The notes under the pieces are model-generated. The model was given only the letters and a program-made list of their open reading frames with translations, was not told the DNA's origin and made no database searches. DNA of 64,000 bases from Octopus sinensis (Eukaryota): assembly GCF_006345805.1 (NCBI RefSeq), contig NC_043022.1, positions 6,882,001 through 6,946,000 on the forward strand, read 5' to 3'. Both the position numbers and the translations under genes were made by a program. Each line of letters starts with the position of its first letter. Position 1 is the first letter of the stretch. This document shows, piece by piece, positions 9,499 to 61,802 of this stretch.

Positions 9499-9708
9499 AA
9501 AGTATAGAAGCCATCTTATCATGGCTAACCACATTGGGGAGGGGGTTGTTACTGTAGCTTTATAGCCCCAAGAGATCTTTGTCTCTAGCTGGCTCTAAAC
9601 ACAATATCTGTGTCTTTGGAGTAGACGAAGATCTCTTGGGGCTATAAAGATACAGTAACAACCCCCTCCCCAATGTGGTTAGCCATGATAAGATGGCTTC
9701 TATACTTT
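9499..9708. repeat. Long inverted repeat (81-bp arms, 1 mismatch, 48-bp spacer) between (TA)n tracts
   Basis: 9499-9579 versus 9628-9708. Confidence 0.95.
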
Positions 9709-9777: not shown

Positions 9778-10318
9778 ATCATCATCATCATCATCGTTTA
9801 ACGTCCGTTCTCCATGCTAGCATGGGTTGGACGGTTCGACCGGGCATCTGGGAAGCCAGAAGGCTGCACCAGGCTCCAGTCTTATCTGGCAGTGTTTCTA
9901 CAGCTGGATGCCCTTCCTAACGCCAACCACTCCTTGAGTGTAGTGGGTGCTTTTTACGTGCCACCTGCACAGGTGCCAGGCGAGGCTGGCAACGGCCACG
10001 GTCGGATTGGTGTATTTTATGTGCCACCGGCACAGAAGCCAGACGAGGCGGTGCTGGCATCGGCCACGAGTCGGATGGTGCTTTTTACGTACCACCAGAC
10101 CAGGGATCCGGCTGGTTCAATTCGATTTCGATTTCGCTTGCCCCAACATGTCTTCGCAAGCAAGGGGGTTGGCATGGGTGCCTGTTGTACGGTTAGATTG
10201 GTGTATTTTACGTGCCACCGGCACGGAAGCCAGTGGAGGCGGCGCTGGCATCGGCCACGAGTCGGATAGTGCTTTTTACGTACCACCAGACCAGGGAACC
10301 TGGCTGGTTCAATTCGAT
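9778..10318 (-). mobile_element. SINE-like family D with heterogeneous unit array
   Basis: Same body as 8980-9140; nearly identical to 59912-60250, with an added duplicated block. Confidence 0.85.
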
Positions 10319-21452: not shown

Positions 21453-21484
<32 letters not shown>

Positions 21485-22351
21485 TATTATTATTATTATT
21501 ATTATCATTATTATTATTATTATTATTATGGAAGCGAGCTGGCAGACTTGTTAGGACACTGGGCAAAATGAGTTCTAATTCTGATGAGGTTGATTTTGCC
21601 TCTCATCCTTTCAGGGTCAATAAATTAAGTACCAGTTGCGTACTGGGGTTGATCTAATCGACTGGGTCCCTCCCCCAAAATTTCAGGCCTTGTGTCTATA
21701 GTAGAAAGGATCGTTATTATTATTGAGTGAGAGAGCAGGTACAAATATACGAAGCCCAGTATACCCATCATGACTACCCTTCTAATAAGAGTAGGCCAGG
21801 TGCGTGCATCACAACCATATGTGCACGACAGAGTGATCTCATATCAAGATAAACAGCGAATTATCTTGCAGGTGGGGCCCTGTTAGAATTTCCTTCAGGT
21901 TGAGTAGCCCATCTGCTCAAAAGGTCCCAGAATGAAGGCTGTTTAAGGATGTTGAACAAAACACCCATGTTTCCAAAGGTGAATTATCCAAACCCCAAAG
22001 AATCCCTCTCAACACATGGCTATGATGGTCCCCCACTACTCCTGCTCGAGATCAGAGATGCACATATAAATCAGCCACTAAGGGACATGCTCAACTGGTT
22101 ATGGTCAAACAACTGACAAGCAAATCTGTGGTATTGAGCAGAATATTTGTTGTAGCCCATCTTTTATACCAAGACAAAACGATGTTGTTGTTGTTGTTCT
22201 TCTTCTTCTTCTCCTTCTTCTTCTTCTTCTTCTTCTTCTTCTTCTTCTTCTTCTTCTTCTTCTTCTTCTTCTTCTTCTTCTTCTTCGCCTTCTTCTTCTT
22301 CTTCTTCTTCTTCTTCTTCTTTCTTCTTCTTCTTCTTCGCCTTCTTCTTCT

Positions 22352-22383
<32 letters not shown>

Positions 22384-23240
22384 TATTATTATTATTATTA
22401 TCATTATTATTATTATTATTATTATGGAAGCGAGCTGGCAGACTTGTTAGGACACTGGGCAAAATGAGTTCTAATTCTGATGAGGTTGATTTTGCCTCTC
22501 ATCCTTTCAGGGTCAATAAATTAAGTACCAGTTGCGTACTGGGGTTGATCTAATCGACTGGGTCCCTCCCCCAAAATTTCAGGCCTTGTGTCTATAGTAG
22601 AAAGGATCGTTATTATTATTGAGTGAGAGAGCAGGTACAAATATACGAAGCCCAGTATACCCATCATGACTACCCTTCTAATAAGAGTAGGCCAGGTGCG
22701 TGCATCACAACCATATGTGCACGACAGAGTGATCTCATATCAAGATAAACAGCGAATTATCTTGCAGGTGGGGCCCTGTTAGAATTTCCTTCAGGTTGAG
22801 TAGCCCATCCTGCTCAAAAGGTCCCAGAATGAAGGCTGTTTAAGGATGTTGAACAAAACACCCATGTTTCCAAAGGTGAATTATCCAAACCCCAAAGAAT
22901 CCCTCTCAACACATGGCTATGATGGTCCCCCACTACTCCTGCTCGAGATCAGAGATGCACATATAAATCAGCCACTAAGGGACATGCTCAACTGGTTATG
23001 GTCAAACAACTGACAAGCAAATCTGTGGTATTGAGCAGAATATTTGTTGTAGCCCATCTTTTATACCAAGACAAAACGATGTTGTTGTTGTTGTTCTTCT
23101 TCTTCTCTTCTTCTTCTTCTTCTTCTTCTTCTTCTTCTCTTCTTCTTCTTCTTCTTCTTCTTCTCCTTCTTCTTCGCCTTCTTCTTGCCTTCTTCTTCTT
23201 CTTCTTCTTCTTCTTCTTCTTCGCCTTCTTCTTCTTATCA
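21452..23240. repeat. About 900-bp near-perfect tandem duplication bounded by microsatellites
   Basis: 21452-22350 versus 22351-23240; the non-microsatellite parts differ by about one indel. Confidence 0.9.
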
Positions 23241-23847
23241 TCATCATCATTATTATTGATTGAGTGAGAGAGCAGTGCTTGCCATCAAAGTGACACTGGG
23301 GTAAAATATACGAAGCCCAGTATACCCATCACGACAATCCCTCTGATAAGGGTACACTAGGCTCATGCTTATTTATTATTATTATTATTATTATTTAGAT
23401 AAACTGTAGCAGTAGCAGCTTAGTTTGTATTTTGAGAAACGACTCACTAACCTTAACTACTCACTGACACCATCTGCGTAAAAGAATAATAGTTAAGTTA
23501 ATGTTAAACTTTAAATATCAATTAAACATAAATATATAATTTGAAATAATTACTGTTGTTGTTGTTGTTGTAGCCCATTAGGTCAGCCATGAAATAATCA
23601 GCAAACCGGTGTGACTGGTTGTTTAACCTGCTAGAAATAACAGCTATATCACCCGCAAATCATAAATGCTGCTTACAATAAAGGAAGGACGTATTAGGTA
23701 ATGCAGTCTTAGATATTCAAAACAGTTGGATGGTCATGGTTGGAACATCTTTGATCGCTGATCTGGGGGTTAGGACTATACCTAGGATTAAATAACTAGT
23801 TTGGATTTTGTATTTATATCACATGTAAGAGCTGTGAACCTTGTCAA

Positions 23848-31227: not shown

Positions 31228-31297
31228 CTATATTAGTGCTTGCGTCCACTCAGAGTGGAGATGTCTCCACTCTAAGTGGACGCAAGCACTAATATAG
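31228..31297. repeat. Hairpin palindrome, 34-bp arms, 1 mismatch, 2-nt loop
   Basis: 31228-31261 versus 31264-31297. Confidence 0.95.
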
Positions 31298-33510: not shown

Positions 33511-33680
33511 ATCACTTTGATCACTTTGACCGACCAGTCCGTCAGGCGTCCATTTGACACCGCTGGTCACAGCATGCTGTCCACTCTTCTCTGGATCACT
33601 TTTCTCATCCACGTGATCCCAATCGTCCCCTTGAAATCGTCTCTCCACCGTTGTGGAGGTCTTCCGGGTGGTCTTTCTAT
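33511..33680 (-). mobile_element. Short 3' end of another RTE-like LINE
   Basis: Minus strand RPPGRPPQRWRDDFKGTIGITWMR; tail (CAAAGTGAT)2. Confidence 0.65.
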
Positions 33681-33864
33681 ATAGTGCACAGAGGATATCC
33701 AGAGATTCTCAGTATAGAAGACAGTTAGTAGTGTTCCAATGATTCAACGTTTGATGTCTTTACAGGGGACCAATTCCTTGGGGTAAAGAATGGCTCCAAG
33801 AGGGATCAAGTTGAGCAGATATGCAGATAAACAAATTAGATATATTGAACATAACAGTTTGGGT

Positions 33865-35948
33865 CCTTCCTTTGGCATCCGTCCATCTCGAGAGACGATG
33901 GTGTAGCTCAGAAAAAGTGGTGGGTTTATCTGGACTTCCTGGTGTGGCTGTGCAGACCAATCATCGAGCGGCAGTCCCTACCACATCTGGTGTAAGTGAA
34001 AGGGGACGAGAGCTGTGGTTGCTGCTGCTGCTCCTTTCGCCTGGTTCTCTTTACTTTGGCAGTAGTGGTCCTCAGGTTCTCTGCTGTCATGGCACTGTGC
34101 TTGACACTGTGTCACCAGGCGCTTCTGTTGGCAGTGGCGAATTCCCATGTTTTGGGTGTTGATCTGGCATAGCTTTAGGTCTTTCTTGCAGATATCCTTG
34201 AAGCGCAGTTTGGGGCGTCCCATTGTTCTGGAGCCTTCCGCTAGCTGTCCGTACAGTAGATCTTTTGGAATCCATCCTGCATCCATTCGGCTGACATGAC
34301 CTAGCCACCGAAGACGCCTCTCACAGAGTGATGTTTACATGCTGTACATGTTGGCACGGTCCAAAACCTCTGTGTTAGTGATCCTGTCCTGCCATTTGAT
34401 ATGGAGAATGCGCAGCAGGCACCTCAGGTGGAAGCTATTGAGTTGTTTCTCATGTCGGGTGTAGGTGGTCCATGTCTCGCTTCCGTACAGCAGTATGCTC
34501 AGTATGCATGCTCGGTAAACTCTCAGTCTAGTATTCTTAGTGAGACTGGTGTTGTTCCATACCCATTTGTTAAGCTTGGCCTTTGCTGCTGTTGCCTTGC
34601 CGATTCTGCTCGTAACCTCTGTGTTGATGGACACAAGAGTTGGATATAGTGGGCCCGAGATAGGTGAAATTGTCGACCACTGCTAGGCTGTAGCCATCTA
34701 TGCAGATTGATGGGTTATGCTCTGCACCCTGCACCATGACGTCTGTCTTCTTCAGGCTGATATTTAGACCAAATTCTTTGTAGGCGTGGGACATGCAGCT
34801 CACAAGTTCTTGGAGCCCAGTTTCTGTGTGTGATGTCAGTGCTGCGTCATCTGCGAAGAGCATCTCTCGAATGAGTATCTTAGCGACTTTGGTTTTGGCT
34901 CATAGACGGGCGATGTTGAAAAGCTATCCGTCGCACCTGGTGTTGATGTAGACTCCCTCCTTGCTGGTCTTAAAAGCAAACTGTAGGAGCAGCGAGAAGA
35001 ATATTCCGAAGAGTGTTGGTGCAAGAACACAACCTTGTTTCATTCCGCTGTTGACTTCCGATATTGCGCTGTTGTAGCAGACAGTGCTGTGCATGTTGTT
35101 GTGGAATGAGGTTTTCACTTTGAGCAGGTGCGGTGGGCATCCTATCTTCTGTAGAAGTGTAAAGAGTCCATTCCTGCTGACGAGATCGAATGCCTGGGTG
35201 AGGTCAATGAAGGCTATATAGAGAGGCATCTGTTGTTCTCGGCACTTCTCTTGCAGTTGTCGTAGTGAGAATATCATGCCCACTGTGGATCATCCTGCTC
35301 TGAAACCACACTGTGACTCTGGGTAAACACGGGTTTGCCAAGGTCTGTAGGGGCGCTGGTGTGACTCGTGCGAAACTTTACCGACCACACTGAGTAGAGA
35401 GATACCCCTGTAGTTGTTGCAGTCGCTGCGATCACCTTTCTTTTTGTACAGGGTGACAATTTTAGCATCTCTCATGTCTTGCGGTATGTGACCATGTTCC
35501 CATGAGAGGCAGAGTAGATCATGCAGGGGGTGTAGCAGTGCAGGTTTCCCACATTTGAGGATTTCTGATGGGATGCCATCGTTCCCGGGAGCCTTGCCAC
35601 AGGCTAGTGAGTCGATTGCCTTGCTGAGCTCTTCCAGTGTGGGTGGAGAGGGTCTAGTTCATTCATAACCGGTAGGACTGGGATAGCGTTGAGGGCCGGC
35701 TCTGTGACGACATTCTGTGTGGCATACAGTTCAGGGTAGGGCTCAGGCCAGCGCTGCATTTGTTTCTCCTGGTCTTGGATTATTACTCCCTCGTTGGTCT
35801 GGATAGGAGCCGTCTTGGTAGGAGCTGGGTCTGTTGCCTTCTTTATGCCCTCATACATCCCACGCACATTCCCTGAGTCTGCTGCACTCTGTATGCCATT
35901 GCAGAGGTTCAACCAGTAAGTGTTGGCGCAGCGCCGGGCTGTCTGCTG
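33865..35948 (-). mobile_element. RTE-clade (BovB-like) LINE, 5'-truncated, frameshifted reverse transcriptase
   Basis: QQTARRCANTYWLNLC, KKKGDRSDCNNYRGISLLS, LRQLQEKCREQQMPLYIAFIDL, GMKQGCVLAPTLF, LFADDAAL, ILLYGSETWT, LYGQLAEGSRTMGRPKLRFKD. Shares the TSD AACAGTTTGGGT with the adjacent rRNA piece. Confidence 0.95.
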
Positions 35949-35949
35949 A

Positions 35950-36396
35950 GAGGAAAAGAAACCAACCGGGATTCCCTAAGTAATGGCGAGTAAACCGGGA
36001 GAAGCCCTATGCCAAGTCTCGTCGGCCGCACTGGTTGTTGAGAGCTGTGGTGCAAGGATCATACACGGTCGATTGTTTCGCCCGGCTAGGTTCGGAGTCC
36101 CCTCGATCGGGGCTGCCCAGAGCAGGTGCCAGGCCCATTCGGAGCTGGCGGCGATCAGTGGTGTTCATTGGCTCGAGAGTCGGGTTGCTTGGGAATGCAG
36201 CCCAAAGTGGGTGGTAAGCTCCATCCAAAGCTAAATTCGGGGGCGAGTCCGATAGCCAACAAGTACCGCGAGGGAAAGTTGAAAAGACCTTTGGAGAGAG
36301 AGTTCAAGAGACCGTGAAACCGCCCAGTGCGCTGCCCTCGACTTGGACTAGATTACCCGCCGAACTTAAGCATATTGCTAAGCGGAGAAAAAGAAC
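35950..36396 (+). pseudogene. 28S rRNA 5'-domain fragment, circularly permuted retrocopy
   Basis: Conserved LSU motifs GAGGAAAAGAAACCAAC, GAGTCGGGTTGCTTGGGAATGCAGCCCAAAG, AACAAGTACCGCGAGGGAAAGTTGAAAAG and GAGAGTTCAAGAG..CGTGAAACCG (35950 to about 36327) are followed by the true 5' end ACCCGCCGAACTTAAGCATAT..AAGCGGAG (about 36334-36396). Confidence 0.93.
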
Positions 36397-37651: not shown

Positions 37652-38045
37652 GCATGTCAGCCCGCATAGCTCAGTCGATAGAGCATCAGACTTTTAAGAA
37701 CTGGCCTGTTATGAAATCTGAGGGTCGCAGGTTCAAGTCCCTCTGTGGGCGACGATTTTTCTTTTGACTGATAGAATAAGCACTCGGCTTACAAAAGAAT
37801 AAGTCCCGGGGTCGAGTTGCTCGATTAAAGGCGGTGCTCCAGCATGGCCACAGTCAAATGACTGAAACAAATAAAAGAGTAAAAGAGTAATATATATGCA
37901 ACAGGCTTCATTTTAGTTTCTGTCTACCAAATCCCTTCACAAGGCTTTGGTCACCCAGTAGGAGACGCTTGCCCAGGGTGCCATACTATGTGATTGAACC
38001 GAGGACTATGTGGTTGGGAAACAAACGTCTTTACCATACTGCCCT
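37425..38045 (-). mobile_element. Old SINE family A copy hosting the tRNA-SINE chimera
   Basis: The family A sequence resumes at 37901 after the insertion. Confidence 0.8.
37660..37751 (+). tRNA. tRNA-Lys(UUU) with 19-nt intron (37697-37715); probably a pseudogene/retrocopy
   Basis: Acceptor GCCCGCA/TGTGGGC, D stem GCTC/GAGC, anticodon stem TCAGA/TCTGA, anticodon TTT at 37693-95, intron between positions 37 and 38, T loop TTCAAGT, downstream TTTTT. Defects: D-loop GG>GA and two T-stem mismatches. Confidence 0.85.
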
Positions 38046-45055: not shown

Positions 45056-46278
45056 GGTATTTGATCAGTTAACCCTGAAAGAATGAAAGGCTGCCTTTTG
45101 ATGCTTTTGGCAAGCTGGAAGTATTTTGTCTGCTGCTATGTTCTGAGTTCAAATTCTGCTGAGGTCAACTTTGCCTTTCATCCTTTGGGGGGGGGGGGTT
45201 GATAAATTAAGTACCAGTTACACATTGGGGTGGATGTCATCGACTTAATCCCTTTGTCTGTCCTTGTTTATCCCCTCTGTGTTTAGCCCCCTGCAAGCAA
45301 TAAAGAAATAAGTATTAGTGCTGATGATAATGGTTTGAAATTTTGGTACAAGGCCTGAAATTTCGAGGAAAGGAGTAAGTTGGTTACATCAACCCCAGTG
45401 TACAACTGGTATTTAATTTATGAGGCAGCGAGATGGCAGAAACGTTAGCGCGCCGGGCGAAATGTTTTACGGTATTTCGTCTTCCGTTACGTTCTGAGTT
45501 CAAATTCCGCCGAGGTCGACTTTGCCTTTCATCCTTTCGGGGTCGATAAATTAAGTACCAGTTATGCACTGGGGTTGATGTAATCGACTTAATACCTATG
45601 TCTGTCCTTGTTTGTCCCCTCTGTGTTTAGCCCCTTGTGGGTAATAAAGAAATAGGTATTTGATCAGTTAACCCTGAAAGAATGAAAGGCTGCCTTTTGA
45701 TGCTTTTGGCAAGCTGGAAGTATTTCGTCTGCTGCTATGTTCTGAGTTCAAATTCTGCTGAGGTCAACTTTGCCTTTCATCCTTTGGGGGTTGATAAATG
45801 AAGTACCAGTTACACATTGGGGTGGATGTCATCAACTTAATCCCTTTGTCTGTCCTTGTTTATCCCCTCTGTGTTTAGCCCCCTGCAAGCAATAAAGAAA
45901 TAAATATTAGTGCTGATGATAATGGTTTGAAATTTTGGTACAAGGCCTGAAATTTCGAGGAAAGGAGTAAGTTGGTTACATCAACCCCAGTGTACAACTG
46001 GTATTTAATTTATCAGTGTACAACTGGTATTTAATTTATGAGGCGGCGAGATGGCAGAAACGTTAGCGCGCCGGGCGAAATGCTTTACAGTATTTCATCT
46101 GCCGTTACGTTCTGAGTTCAAATTCCGCCGAGGTCGACTTTGCCTTTCATCCTTTCGGGGTCGATGAATTAAGTACCAGTTACGCACTGGGGTCAATGTA
46201 ATCGACTTAATACCTATGTCTGTCCTTGTTTGTCCCCTCTATGTTTAGCCCCTTGTGGGTAATAAAGAAATAGGTATT
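45056..46278. repeat. About 600-bp tandem duplication of nested SINE B copies
   Basis: GGTATTTGATCAGTTAACCCTG at 45056 and 45655; each unit holds an old and a young SINE B. Confidence 0.88.
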
Positions 46279-46633
46279 TAATTTATCAACCCCAAAATAA
46301 TGAAGGACCTAAGTCAATCTTGGTGGGATTTGAATTCAGAGCATGAAGCCAGAGGAAATGCCGCTAAGCATTTCGCCTGCCATTCTAACGAATCTGCCAA
46401 TTCTCCACCTTATCTCTCCAGAAGTAAATTAAACGATAATTAACAGCTGAACCTCTCATTCTCCTCCTTTCTCTCTCTACATCTGTTTCCCCATTTCTCC
46501 CTTCTCTCCCCACCCTTCATCTCTTGAGCATCTCCCAATATCTTCACCTTCCCTTTACCCCCTTTCTCTCTCTCTCTTTCTCTCAACCCTCCCTAGATTG
46601 AATGCTGTTGGACTTGCCCCTCTTTCTGTCCCT

Positions 46634-53070: not shown

Positions 53071-54095
53071 CTTCATCATGAAGGATATAAACACCCATCA
53101 AGCAGATTTATGAATGAAGACAATCCACCTGTGGCCATCCCTATTTCTGAGGCACAGTGGACCTAGGGCACGCATTATTCAATGTGCCATGTTTCTAAGA
53201 TGATATGGTGCATGAATTGAGAAAGATTTGACTGTTATTTCTAGCTGGTTAGGTGACAACCAAGAGGTTTTCTTATTGCTCAACATGAAGATTATGTTGT
53301 TTAGCTCCAGCTCAGCCTTAATTGAGCAGATCTATGACCTAAGACACTCCAGATAAGACCACTCTGTTATTTTCTCCTTAGACATTGTGCATCATTAATT
53401 ATAATATTCAATGTATTTTATTTAAGGCAGTAGAGTGTGAGTTGGGGGAGGGGGCAGGGTTTGGCTGCTGTTTCTAGGATATAATGAGACCATATAGAGA
53501 TTTCCCTCGAATAATATCTTGGTTGTCTGTAAGAAAAAAATGATTATCTGGAGATTTTTATGAATTATCTTGTTTAGCCTCAGGTCAACCCTGATCTAAC
53601 AGGCTGATGATCACCGACAGCCCAGCCATGACTGTCCCAGAAAGACTACACTGTGTCATGCGTTTTGTTTTTATATACAAGAGACATCAGCAGTTTATAA
53701 TTTGAAGGAAATTAGGCTGTTATTTCTAGCTGGTTGACTGACCACATAGCGGTAGGTTCCTTCGTTAAGGATTATTTAATTAACTGTCATGTGATGACAT
53801 AAATCTTCTGTTAATTCCATTTTGACTTTGCCTGACACAACTCCTTCATATTGTAATCTAATCTGGCATCTTGGCACCAATCTCATTATTTATGTTGCAT
53901 TTAATTTATAACATTCTTTGTTTTAGCTGTCATGGTTAAGCCCATGCTGGAGTACCAGTCTTTTTATATTCCATATTGAGAACAGTTTATTAGGCTGGTA
54001 CAAATGCTCATTTGGCCAAAGCAAATGTTTTGGTCTCATTTGATGGCCTCAGTGTTGCATATAGTTCGTTATTCACAAGAATAATTGCTATAATA

Positions 54096-54510
54096 GGCGC
54101 AGGAGTGGCTGTGTGGTAAGTAGCTTGCTAACCAACCACATGGTTCCGGGTTCAGTCCCACTGCGTGGCACCTTGGGCAAGTGTCTTCTGCTATAGCCTC
54201 GGGCCGACCAATGCCTTGTGAGTGGATTTGGTAGACGGAAACTGAAAGAAGCCTGTCGTATATATGTATATATATGTATGTATGTGTGTGTTTGTGTGTC
54301 TGTGTTTGTCCCCCTAGCATTGCTTGACAACCGATGCTTGTGTGTTTACGTCCCCGTCTCTTAGTGGTTCGGCAAAAGAGACCGATAGAATAAGTACTGG
54401 GCTTACAAAGAATAAGTCCCGGGGTCGATTTGCTCGACTAAAAGGCGGTGCTCCAGCATGGCCGCAGTCAAATGACTGAAACAAGTAAAAGAGTAAAAGA
54501 GAGTAAAGAG
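54096..54510 (+). mobile_element. SINE family A, full length
   Basis: Head to tail; its 3' flank is shared with the 55596 copy. Confidence 0.9.
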
Positions 54511-54791
54511 TAATATAAGGGGCGATAAGTACATTTATTCAGAATCCTCTTTATCTGGGAAAGGTAAGTTTCATCACCATCACCAATGCTATAAAGGAAT
54601 ACAAATCAAGTCAACTGGGATTTCATTACCGTACCTGAAAGTACTGGCAAGTGCACTGGTTTGTTTGTTGTTTGTAGTATATCTACGCAAATATGTAAAG
54701 ATCAAAGGAAGCTTTCAAGCTATATCTTATTGTTTGGACCATAATTAGCTTTACTGACTTGTCTACTCTGTTTCATTCAAATGAAATCATC

Positions 54792-54848
54792 AGGAGCTTC
54801 CTGATGATTTCATTTGAATGAAACAGTTCTAGTCCTGTAGAAGCTCCT
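54792..54848 (+). ncRNA. Type I hammerhead ribozyme motif (probably Penelope-like-element derived)
   Basis: Stem I AGGAGCTTC/GAAGCTCCT (9 bp), core CTGATGA (54801-07), weak stem II TTC/GAA, GAAA (54820-23), stem III ACAG/CTGT, cleavage triplet GTA (after 54839). Confidence 0.7.
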
Positions 54849-54954
54849 TCTATAAAATAAATTAATTTACTCTGCTATGTATTGAGTACCTTATTTACTG
54901 TGGTTAACCCCGACTCAACCCGGGACCTACATATATATAATATATATACATATA

Positions 54955-57911
54955 CCATATTTGCTGGTGTATTAACTGGACTTTTTTTCAGATAGGAAAA
55001 TCTGAGAAAAGGGGGTGAAGGTTATACATGGGTACAAGGAAAACTTGGTCTAAAACATGGACATTATTTCATGTAATCATCCAAGTTTCATGTGGTACTA
55101 GCTCCCCTTACAATTCTTACCATTAAAACTAGTAAAAAAACTGTTTAAATATTCTTATTTCAGTGGCATCATCCATTTTGTCCATCATAAACTCATATAA
55201 CATTACGCATTTCAAGCCAACGTGCTCCGGTGTCATCTCAGTTGCAGCCTCCACTCCAATGGTGCTGCAGCCCTGTATAAGATGGACATGCGCTGGTAGA
55301 AAAGTGGCAAGAATATCTGTTAAGACTTACCTTTTATCCGACAAATGCCCCATGATTGACAGCTGATCGCAATTTCCACTCAGCCTCTGTGTCACTGCGA
55401 TTTATCTGAGTTTAGTAATCCCCAGGTCTACGACGTAAACAACTATTGTTCGGTGACCCGGATGTATTACTTATCTTGCCAAATAGGGAAACGAGAGAGA
55501 GGGAGAGCTGTGGTTCATTCTCGAATGTGATTGATGAAATGTATTTACTGGGTAACAAGTAAATTAAAATGGAATATGAAAAATTATTTCATATAGGCGC
55601 AGGAGTGGCTGTGTGGTAAGTAGCTTGCTAACCAACCACATGGTTCCGGGTTCAGTCCCACTGCGTGGCATCTTGGGCAAGTGTCTTCTGCTATAGCCCC
55701 GGGCCGACCGGGGCTATAGCAGTGGATTTGGTAGACGGAAACTGAAAGAAGCCCATCGTATATATGTATGTATATATATATATATGTGTGTTTGTGTGTC
55801 TGTGTTTGTCCCCCTAGCATTGCTTGGCAACCGATGCTGGTGTGTTTACGTCCCTGTCACTTAGTGGTTCGGCAAAAGAGACCGATAGAATAAGTACTGG
55901 GCTTACAAAGAATAAGTCCCGGGGTCGATTTGTTTGACTAAAGGCGGTGCTCCAGCATGGCCGCAGTCAAATGACTGAAACAAGTAAAGAGTAAAGAGTA
56001 ATATAAGGGGCGATAAGTACATTTATTCAGAATCCTCTTTATCTGCGAAAGGTAAGTTTCATCACCATCACCAATGCTATAAAGGAATACAAATCAAGTC
56101 AACTGGGATTTCATTACCGTACCTGAAAGTACTGGCAAGTGCACTGGTTTGTTTGTTGTTTGTAGTATATCTACGCAAATATGTAAAGATCAAAGGAAGC
56201 TTTCAAGCTATATCTTATTGTTTGGACCATAATTAGCTTTATTGACTTGTCTACTCTGTTCTTGAAGTCCCATCTGACTCATCTAATTTGCTCTTCAAGT
56301 CCACCAGTGGTCAAGATGAGCATTCACAGCTGTCCTCAAGCTCTCAGTTTCCAGGTTTGCTTAGGAGTTTGGAAACCGTGCAGTGGGCTGTCGTTTTGTG
56401 GCTGACAAGTCTGTTGTCCTATGATGGTGCTCCAATAAGGCCACAATCAAGTCAATGCCCAAGAAGACGACAATGAGGGGCAAAATGGTGCTGTGGCCAG
56501 AATTGGAGGAGAGGCTTGTTGGATGGGTGAGAAGAGAAGAGGATGGGAGGACTTGTGGTACTGGCACTCACCCTTCAAATTGAGGCCAAGAAGATCACCA
56601 AAGACATTGGTGTCAGAGACTTCTGTTCCAGCACATCATAAGCTTTTCGGTTTATGCACAGGCATGATCTGTCCATCAGGCATTGCACCCACATTGCACA
56701 GCGGTTGCTGGAAGATCTCGATGAGAAGACTGAGAGGTTCCAGTGGTTTATCATCAACCTGCGTAAATGGCGTCAGGACCCTCTGAGCTGCACTGGCAAA
56801 GCAGACTAGACTGCCCTCACGATCGATCTTCCAATGGCAAGAACTGTTGCTGAGAAAGGGAAGAAAACAGTGGAAATCATCACGATGGGTCACAAGAAGG
56901 ACCGTTTTATGGTGATGCTGGCTTGCATGGCTGATTGATGAAAGCTGCCACCATATGTCAGCCTCAAGAGGAAGAGACTACCCAAGGCTGCCAAGTTTCG
57001 GGAAGGGGCCATTGTTTGAGCCCAAGTGAAAGGTTGGATGGACCAAGCACTCATTGAGGACTGGCTTCGGGTAGTGTGGGTCAGTGCATCAGTGGACTGC
57101 ATCAGAGAAGGAGTCTCCTGGTTTTGGACGCATTCAGATGCCACAAGACAGAAGAAACCAAGGTGAAGATACGTCATCTGAACATCGCCGTGGCAATGAT
57201 CCCCAAGGGAATGACATCCCTTCTTCAACCCTTTGATGTTGCAGTCAACAAACCATTTAAGGACTGTCTGAAACACCGCTGGGAGGATTGGATGGCCAAT
57301 GCACTGCTGGAAATGACAAAGACTGGGTGCACAAAGAAAGTTGACTTGGGGACAATCTGCGAGTGGATCCTGAAGGTCTGGGAAAACATCACCAAGTGGG
57401 CTTTCCTGAAGTGCTGTTTATCCAACGCACTTGGCAGCACAGAAGAAGACATCTTGTAGAAAAATGATGCTATCTCTCCCGACTCTTCTGATTCTAGCGA
57501 TGACAACGATGAACTGACATATGCAGATGATCAACTCTACGAGGTCTTCAATGGGTCGTCTGATGACAAAGAGTTCTTCAGCTTTGTGTGAAGTCTCTCC
57601 CCATTTGGATCGGTTCTTTTTAGGACCATACATTTCCAAGAAAGAATATAAAGATCACAATAAATCATATAAACACACATAATAAAAAGATGTTCTCTTA
57701 TTATCTCTTGCATTCAAAACCTGGACTTTTTCCATTAATAATTATGAGCATCAATGATTGCAGTTGGAATGAAATCATCAGGAAATTGAAGTTTGTATTC
57801 ATCCCGCATTTCTCCCTTTTCATTAGCCCTGGTTATTTCCCGGTTTCCCACATGATTTTTCCTGTGGGGGACTGAAAATCAGGGGTGCAGTTTATACACT
57901 GGCAAATTAGG
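54955..57911 (+). mobile_element. pogo-superfamily (POGK/Passer-like, DD35D) DNA transposon, full-length fossil
   Basis: Imperfect TIRs CCATATTTGCTGGTGTATTAACTG / CAGTTTATACACTGGCAAATTAGG. Broken transposase at about 56440-57550: FMHRHDLSIR (CENP-B HTH), KLPPYV, KGWMD, SLLVLDAFRCH...IPKGMTSLLQPFDVAVNKPFK with 35 residues between the Ds. Confidence 0.88.
55596..56000 (+). mobile_element. SINE family A inserted in the pogo element
   Basis: Full length; ATATA on both flanks. Confidence 0.9.
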
Positions 57912-61702: not shown

Positions 61703-61802
61703 NNNNNNNNNNNNNNNNNNNNNNNNNNNNNNNNNNNNNNNNNNNNNNNNNNNNNNNNNNNNNNNNNNNNNNNNNNNNNNNNNNNNNNNNNNNNNNNNNN
61801 NN
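61703..61802. other. Assembly gap (100 N)
   Basis: Run of N. Confidence 1.

Follow-up and report, generated by a model that had tools for sequence, protein, structure and literature searches.

Penelope-like elements (PLEs) leave 5′-truncated copies with an adjacent inverted copy and a tail of 30-40 bp, and carry hammerhead motifs in their pseudo-LTRs (pLTRs; Craig et al., PMC8557442; see also PMC6765202). In Adineta vaga, palindromes are abundant at the inverted junctions and TATA boxes occur in the pLTRs; self-priming on an antisense template has been proposed for these inversions (Arkhipova et al., PMC3846280). In the anole element, Poseidon PAc of Anolis carolinensis, both strands are nicked and extended at AT-rich DNA, the ribozyme is protein-assisted and uncleaved RNA serves as template, the later steps of insertion being 'yet to be validated' (Frangieh et al., PMC11167929). 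Metazoan PLE hammerheads number thousands per genome, are mostly solo and minimal, show low activity even as dimers, and conserve a G10.1-C11.1 pair (Cervera and de la Pena, PMC4209133). For octopus, 31 recently active Penelope-like families are given for Octopus vulgaris (PMC13282606).

The locus analysed here lies in a 64,000-nt stretch of octopus DNA (the window), in which a hammerhead motif faces a truncated, inverted copy of itself. It resembles the EN+ Penelope elements of Adineta vaga (PMC3846280) in its head-to-head inverted copy and junction palindrome, in the TATA box upstream of other family copies (theirs lying in the pLTR), in what may be an optional tail, and in microhomology, which occurs at some of their 5′ joins. 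It differs from them in its small remnant, some 130 bp of pLTR-like sequence plus an arm of 28 bp, which has neither an ORF nor a target duplication, in the position of its axis on the first bases of stem I, and in an outer end fused to a local 273-bp duplicate.

With the minimal hammerheads of metazoan PLEs (PMC4209133) the octopus motif shares type I topology, a full core, a palindromic loop 3, high copy number and a predicted weak monomer, theirs being mostly solo truncated copies. Its stem II, however, is 3 bp behind a U.U pair, whereas theirs is long with G10.1-C11.1, and its stem III, unlike theirs, is closed, with 4 bp and a loop of 8 nt. Like PAc (PMC11167929), the family has AT-rich targets, two 3′ end points and an intact hammerhead in inserted copies, as expected of an uncleaved template; in contrast to PAc, whose ORF starts inside the hammerhead, the octopus repeat has no such frame, and its tail is about 65 nt rather than 30-40 bp. 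Metazoan non-LTR retrozymes (PMC7229834) are likewise non-coding, abundant and low in GC with a type I hammerhead, but form head-to-tail tandem arrays with canonical ribozymes, whereas the octopus unit is single, head-to-head and on (TA)n.

Openly accessible literature, searched for octopus PLE hammerheads and for head-to-head PLE palindromes, described neither the repeat family nor pivoting at the transcription start. A 20-nt probe was absent from one supplement file of PMC8557442. Repbase or the repeat library of PMC13282606 may already hold the family.

An exact foldback over a hammerhead motif

Positions 54768-54795 of the window are the exact reverse complement of 54799-54826, giving 28-bp arms with a 3-nt loop. 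The chance expectation for such an inverted repeat in 64,000 nt is about 2 × 10−11. An earlier note, made from the sequence alone, had described a 28-bp foldback over a hammerhead core, and the complementarity was confirmed in full. The left arm (54768-54795, minus strand) is a truncated mirror copy of the core.

The core, cleavage site and stem III described in that note were each found in place on the plus strand: CUGAUGA at 54801-54807, GAAA at 54820-54823, stem III ACAG/CUGU at 54823-26/54835-38 with CUAG at 54829-32 in its loop, and the cleavage triplet GUA at 54837-39, with the predicted cut after 54839. Its 9-bp stem I holds for the present copy (54792-800/54840-48) but probably not as a family trait. 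The outer 3 bp use AGG of the arm, and the best-agreeing family flank ends in CAGCC at these positions, which would leave 6 bp. The family stem I is probably 6 bp, with the AGG of the 9-bp version borrowed from the arm, and the predicted type I motif common to the family, judged by sequence, descriptor and folding, spans 54795-54845 on the plus strand.

All core elements of a type I hammerhead (CUGANGA, GAAA, NUH, stems I and III) are present by sequence and descriptor. A stable stem II with G10.1-C11.1 is not; the stem has 3 bp behind a U.U pair, so that the weak stem II with a U-U closing pair noted earlier is real. No common stem II change occurred among the depth-table rows listed for the public runs considered below. 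The family carries a putative hammerhead variant whose stem II has U.U at its base.

The site is recovered by motif search but not by profile search. Our own type I descriptor matched this single site in the window, compared with two matches in 100 simulated 64-kb order-3 Markov windows. In Rfam, no hammerhead reached the gathering score in the window; the best hammerhead match in a narrow search, Hammerhead_3, scored 12.7 bits (E 2.4), where the cut-off is 48.5. None of 27 weak Rfam matches in 54500-55200 was a hammerhead, the other matches being generic miRNA-hairpin and C/D snoRNA models only, far under cut-off. A C/D snoRNA reading was rejected, there being no CUGA box D before the 3′ stem. 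Pattern scans gave no matches in metagenome contigs, viral contigs or prokaryotic genomes.

Predicted folding of the motif

Folding was predicted under two constraints: stems I and III were forced to pair, and the core was held unpaired. The energies omit non-canonical core contacts, so the values serve as a guide only. Hammerhead-compatible structures made up 3.9 × 10−4 of the predicted ensemble for 54795-54862 and 7.8 × 10−3 for 54792-54862. Without the arm, a rival hairpin, UUUCAU/AUGAAA, was predicted to occupy the GAAA core with a probability of 0.72-0.92. With the arm, the hammerhead-compatible share was 1.5 × 10−21. The hairpin and ribozyme folds had been proposed to be mutually exclusive, and a predicted reduction to about 10−21 agrees with this. 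Any plus-strand transcript would, on this model, have its ribozyme blocked by the hairpin, though as a by-product. Dimer-cleaving PLE hammerheads have reportedly been described by Lunse et al.

A very high-copy repeat ending on (TA)n

Public contigs were aligned to 54505-55595 for four of 24 listed runs (X1, X2, X7 and X9; four organism labels, three studies). The analysis draws on 40 of the 376 differences and 12 of the 65 indels, together with 15 of the 17 joints, 24 of the 190 loose ends and 32 of the 8927 pieces. Summed contig depth over 54801-54911 was 0.93-1.01, 0.86-2.21, 0.35-0.51 and 0.030-0.052 million in the four runs, against 92-1267, 33-776, 10-145 and 5-86, respectively, in flanking bins. 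From 54795 to about 54927 the summed depth is thus some 1,000 times (about three orders of magnitude) that of the flanks, a ratio that is not a copy number, the flanks themselves being already repeated. The motif lies within this very high-copy repeat, as would a hammerhead in a terminal repeat. Most of the aligned contigs agree to 95% or better (in X1, 731 of 950), which indicates that the family is young.

The 3′ part of the repeat (54846-54927, plus strand) contains AATAAA at 54856-61. Many copies stop at 54859-66, and the loose ends listed behind this zone read (TA)n in all four runs. Other copies run on, with depth continuing to about 54927, where the present copy meets a (TA)-rich run (54928-54954) that is its likely target site. 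Both observations fit insertion into AT-rich or (TA)n targets. The two end zones amount to an optional extension of about 65 nt, compared with a published PLE tail of 30-40 bp. Head-to-tail tandem repeats of 170-400 nt, typical of retrozymes, were not found: the unit is a single copy in the window, and copies in the runs end on (TA)n.

Among the loose ends listed before 54795, TATAAAT occurs about 29-30 nt upstream in three of the four runs. The best-agreeing 5′ flank consensus, with its terminal CAGCC, came from X9 (five contigs, agreement 0.89). The TATA-containing native 5′ flank of other copies is absent from the present one.

Coding potential around the motif

No reverse transcriptase (RT) or GIY-YIG/endonuclease frame, and no open start, was found in the six frames downstream of the motif or the three frames through it. 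No Penelope RT or GIY-YIG ORF is thus attached in the window; the downstream DNA is a DDE transposon. In the Penelope/Poseidon clade the ORF starts inside the pLTR, and here all three forward frames are closed within 54795-54956. With its frames closed, the repeat is less easily assigned to that clade; it may contain an intron or be a non-autonomous derivative.

No host coding exon emerged when 97 of the 172 long frames and 46 of the 147 short exon-like ones were searched against Pfam, and the only above-cut-off matches in the frames scanned were the DDE domain and a LINE-type RT 20 kb away. Short or non-coding exons could have escaped this search, and a plus-strand intron may exist. The LINE-type RT (34573-35289), which we take to be an RTE element, was considered as a PLE RT and rejected, as it reads as LINE-type and is unrelated to the motif. 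Within 33600-36380, its decayed LINE-type RT sequence on the minus strand adjoins a 28S rRNA fragment at about 35934-36380.

A near-palindromic junction at AGCT

The forward copy starts at AGCT (54795-54798), a self-complementary tetranucleotide that forms the axis of the head-to-head junction. One extra A in front of it would complete the palindrome, so that the present junction is one A short of perfect. The locus has an inverted, 5′-truncated, head-to-head copy with a junction palindrome.

An A inserted behind 54794 was recorded in X1 at a depth of 987.5 of 6270 (one contig), in X2 at 10071 of 33806 (nine contigs) and in X7 at 612.5 of 3819 (one contig), and in X9 at 0 of 14.6. A loose-end consensus from X7 also reads as the arm, with 11 of its 12 last letters agreeing. 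Read from such summary rows, these data suggest that the same head-to-head junction recurs at other loci in three of the four runs. Library foldback chimeras could contribute to the palindrome counts.

One tentative and rather doubtful explanation is that the inversion pivot of the family is the 5′ end of its RNA. A TATA box 29 nt upstream would direct transcription to start at the first base of stem I, with CA at −1/+1. Run-off cDNAs from both target strands would then end in the self-complementary AGCT and anneal to each other. If so, two sense templates would suffice for PLE head-to-head palindromes, the antisense self-priming put forward for Adineta would not be needed, and the abundance of the family would make the pivot model directly countable. 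The TATA-start reading is less generalisable because the Drosophila Penelope promoter is described as internal and TATA-less (PMC2377424).

The single locus itself matters little, being a truncated mobile-element end among decayed repeats. A young and very abundant family in which the same AGCT, 29 nt downstream of a TATA box, may have served as pivot many times would offer a simple test of how such junctions form, by genome-wide counting and 5′-end mapping.

The outer join of the arm

The DNA to the left of the arm is a 273-bp segment (U, 54500-54772, plus strand) that duplicates 55988-56260 (U′, plus strand) with two differences. U′ belongs to the interior of a decayed DDE DNA transposon (54955-57907, plus strand), which we take, from its motifs, to be pogo-like. 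The element has a DDE_1 domain at 57058-57456 (Pfam, E 3 × 10−17) and degenerate inverted ends at 54959 and 57907, whose score was reached by none of 1000 shuffles. U′ runs on into the transposase region, as a native copy and the likely donor of U, from which U lies 1.5 kb away. The same element contains, at 57768-57784 and 3 kb downstream of the foldback, a 17-nt exact reverse complement of 54798-54814, a match found in none of 300 simulated windows.

Two SINEs adjoin the duplicated segments. Copy 1 (54093-54499, plus strand) ends in a 3′ tail that forms the left join of U. Copy 2 (55593-55992, plus strand) has inserted into the pogo-like element, where it separates segment X from U′, as the alignment and a paralogue joint indicate. 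In three of the four runs, paralogous contigs among the joints listed connect 55590 to 54513, which places the native position of U after segment X. Copies 1 and 2 have about 25 differences up to 54440 and are identical at 54441-54488; copy 1, one of about ten near-full SINE copies in the window at 91-95% identity, has none of the private changes of copy 2. Because the SINEs differ ahead of the near-identical U and U′, U appears to have been attached to a different SINE through its tail. In copy 2, a 15-bp foldback at 55708-55722 (foldback region 55688-55722) replaces the normal sequence and is absent from the other aligned SINE copies. It looks like a template-switch inversion.

At the other end of U, the sequence CTGTT (54768-54772) is shared by the segment and the outer end of the arm. 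Microhomology of at least 5 nt arose in 0.6% of 200,000 random joins (p ~0.006).

The duplication did not look alike in all runs. In X2, one contig among the pieces listed (record 9; 803 nt, depth 36.9, single-locus) is unbroken over 54562-54772 and then leaves the stretch; it presumably continues into the transposase region. Four positions in U had a reference-like depth of 36.9 in X2, and four in X had one of 39.6-40.1. As read from these summary tables, X2 appears to be without the 273-bp duplication. In X1, reference-like depth reached 96.7-98.8 for four positions within U and 50.7-57.3 for most of those within X, about double at four of six informative U positions, a ratio to be read with care as overlapping contigs can also double a depth sum and X1 may be the source sample. 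Depth counter-values inside U, at 54547 and 54554, were 68.4 in X1 and 69.6 in X2; those inside X were 108.5 (55321) and 118.4 (55550) in X1. Reference-like depth was 7.4-8.9 in X7, and X9 had no reference-like contig over U, so that both add little. The outer join of the arm thus looks like a recent local rearrangement that is missing from one run.

Origin of the foldback

The earlier note had proposed a Penelope-type terminus with an inverted 5′ end. The high-copy repeat, (TA)n ends, TATA-containing native flank and apparently recurring palindromic junction match published PLEs, and the repeat likely belongs to this group, as a pLTR end. Because no RT or GIY-YIG frame is attached, this membership is one that we infer. 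The motif would resemble a PLE pLTR end yet has two atypical features. Against a PLE stand a U.U pair in stem II where PLE hammerheads conserve G10.1-C11.1, an extension of about 65 nt rather than 30-40, and the lack of any ATG in the repeat that opens a frame, unlike in the anole element.

The hairpin is likely a scar of insertion and repair, rather than a switch protecting a host gene. We consider it probable that a PLE inserted at (TA)n with its cDNAs joined at AGCT, and that the palindrome later broke, invaded a SINE, gained the 273-bp copy and was rejoined at CTGTT. The steps that follow are a reconstruction from the arms, duplication, microhomology, very high depth, (TA)n ends and different native 5′ flank, which are observed directly. 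The element protein would have nicked the (TA)n run at the left end of the old pogo-like transposon, with cDNA made on both strands. The two cDNAs would then have been joined at AGCT to give a perfect palindrome. On breakage of this palindrome, the left end would have been resected to SINE copy 1 and have invaded SINE copy 2 by homology; the tail of copy 2 and 273 bp would have been copied and rejoined to the remaining arm through CTGTT. We infer the order of events within this last step. The mirror arm was likely cut back to 28 bp by this later local repair, and one A would have been lost from the junction axis at some point.

The same final sequence could also result from a single insertion, in which a second nick 1.3 kb downstream, at 56260, let CTGTT prime on AACAG of the element RNA (twin priming) and so produced the 28-bp arm; recombination between the SINEs would afterwards have reduced the 1.3-kb duplication to U alone. 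The microhomology lies exactly at the arm end, as this would require, and a median target duplication of 900 bp has been published, for a Dualen LINE rather than a PLE (PMC9977147). The anole PLE, however, begins cDNA synthesis at places in the RNA that have no homology to the cut DNA (PMC11167929), the PLE target duplications named in PMC3846280 are 8-10 bp, and a second event would still be needed. We regard this course as unlikely.

Less likely still, the arm would have nothing to do with retrotransposition and be a short template-switch inversion of the ordinary kind, left by DNA repair beside a 5′-truncated copy. The foldback in SINE copy 2 is similar, and both arm ends have short homologies. 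Against such an inversion, the same axis appears to recur in other copies in three of the four runs, among the rows listed, and head-to-head palindromes are a published hallmark of PLEs (PMC3846280).

We also find it very unlikely that the repeat is no PLE end but belongs to the non-LTR retrozymes or to some other SINE-like family with a hammerhead. Short, very abundant and free of an attached ORF, it does have a type I hammerhead with a closed stem III, and retrozymes are known in molluscs; those described in PMC7229834 are nevertheless 170-400-nt tandem repeats with canonical hammerheads, in contrast to a single copy with an inverted junction in a family ending on (TA)n.

An assembly or library artefact is highly improbable as the source of the foldback and duplication. 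PLE inversions do trouble assemblies (PMC8557442), no listed contig spans the stretch, and no listed row directly shows the join at 54772. Against this, U and U′ differ at two sites, and X1 has about double depth at four of the six informative U positions, though it may be the source sample. The loss of one base at the axis and two microhomology joins are atypical of read chimeras.

That the arm was retained for its effect on a plus-strand host pre-mRNA, which it would keep from self-cleaving as the earlier note proposed for an intronic site, is hardly credible: the arm does abolish the predicted hammerhead fold, but that fold is below 1% (0.04-0.8%) even without it, the scanned frames hold no host exon, one run appears to be without the rearrangement, and published PLE hammerheads are weak or protein-dependent (PMC4209133, PMC11167929).

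Other features of the window

Further inverted repeats were observed elsewhere in the window. At 1743-1839, a perfect 46-bp inverted repeat with a 5-nt spacer is followed by (TA)n, possibly a further head-to-head insertion junction. Two more, at 31228-31297 (23 bp) and 9558-9649 (22 bp), are likewise perfect, contain internal spacers and are MITE-like. Local tandem duplications occur at 21456-23256 (about 900 bp, 97.7%) and 45056-46304 (about 650 bp, 91.6%), and a 100-N scaffold gap at 61703-61802 is followed by a minisatellite array. At 37660-37751, a tRNA match of 48.4 bits is interrupted at the anticodon loop by about 20 extra nt, perhaps an intron.
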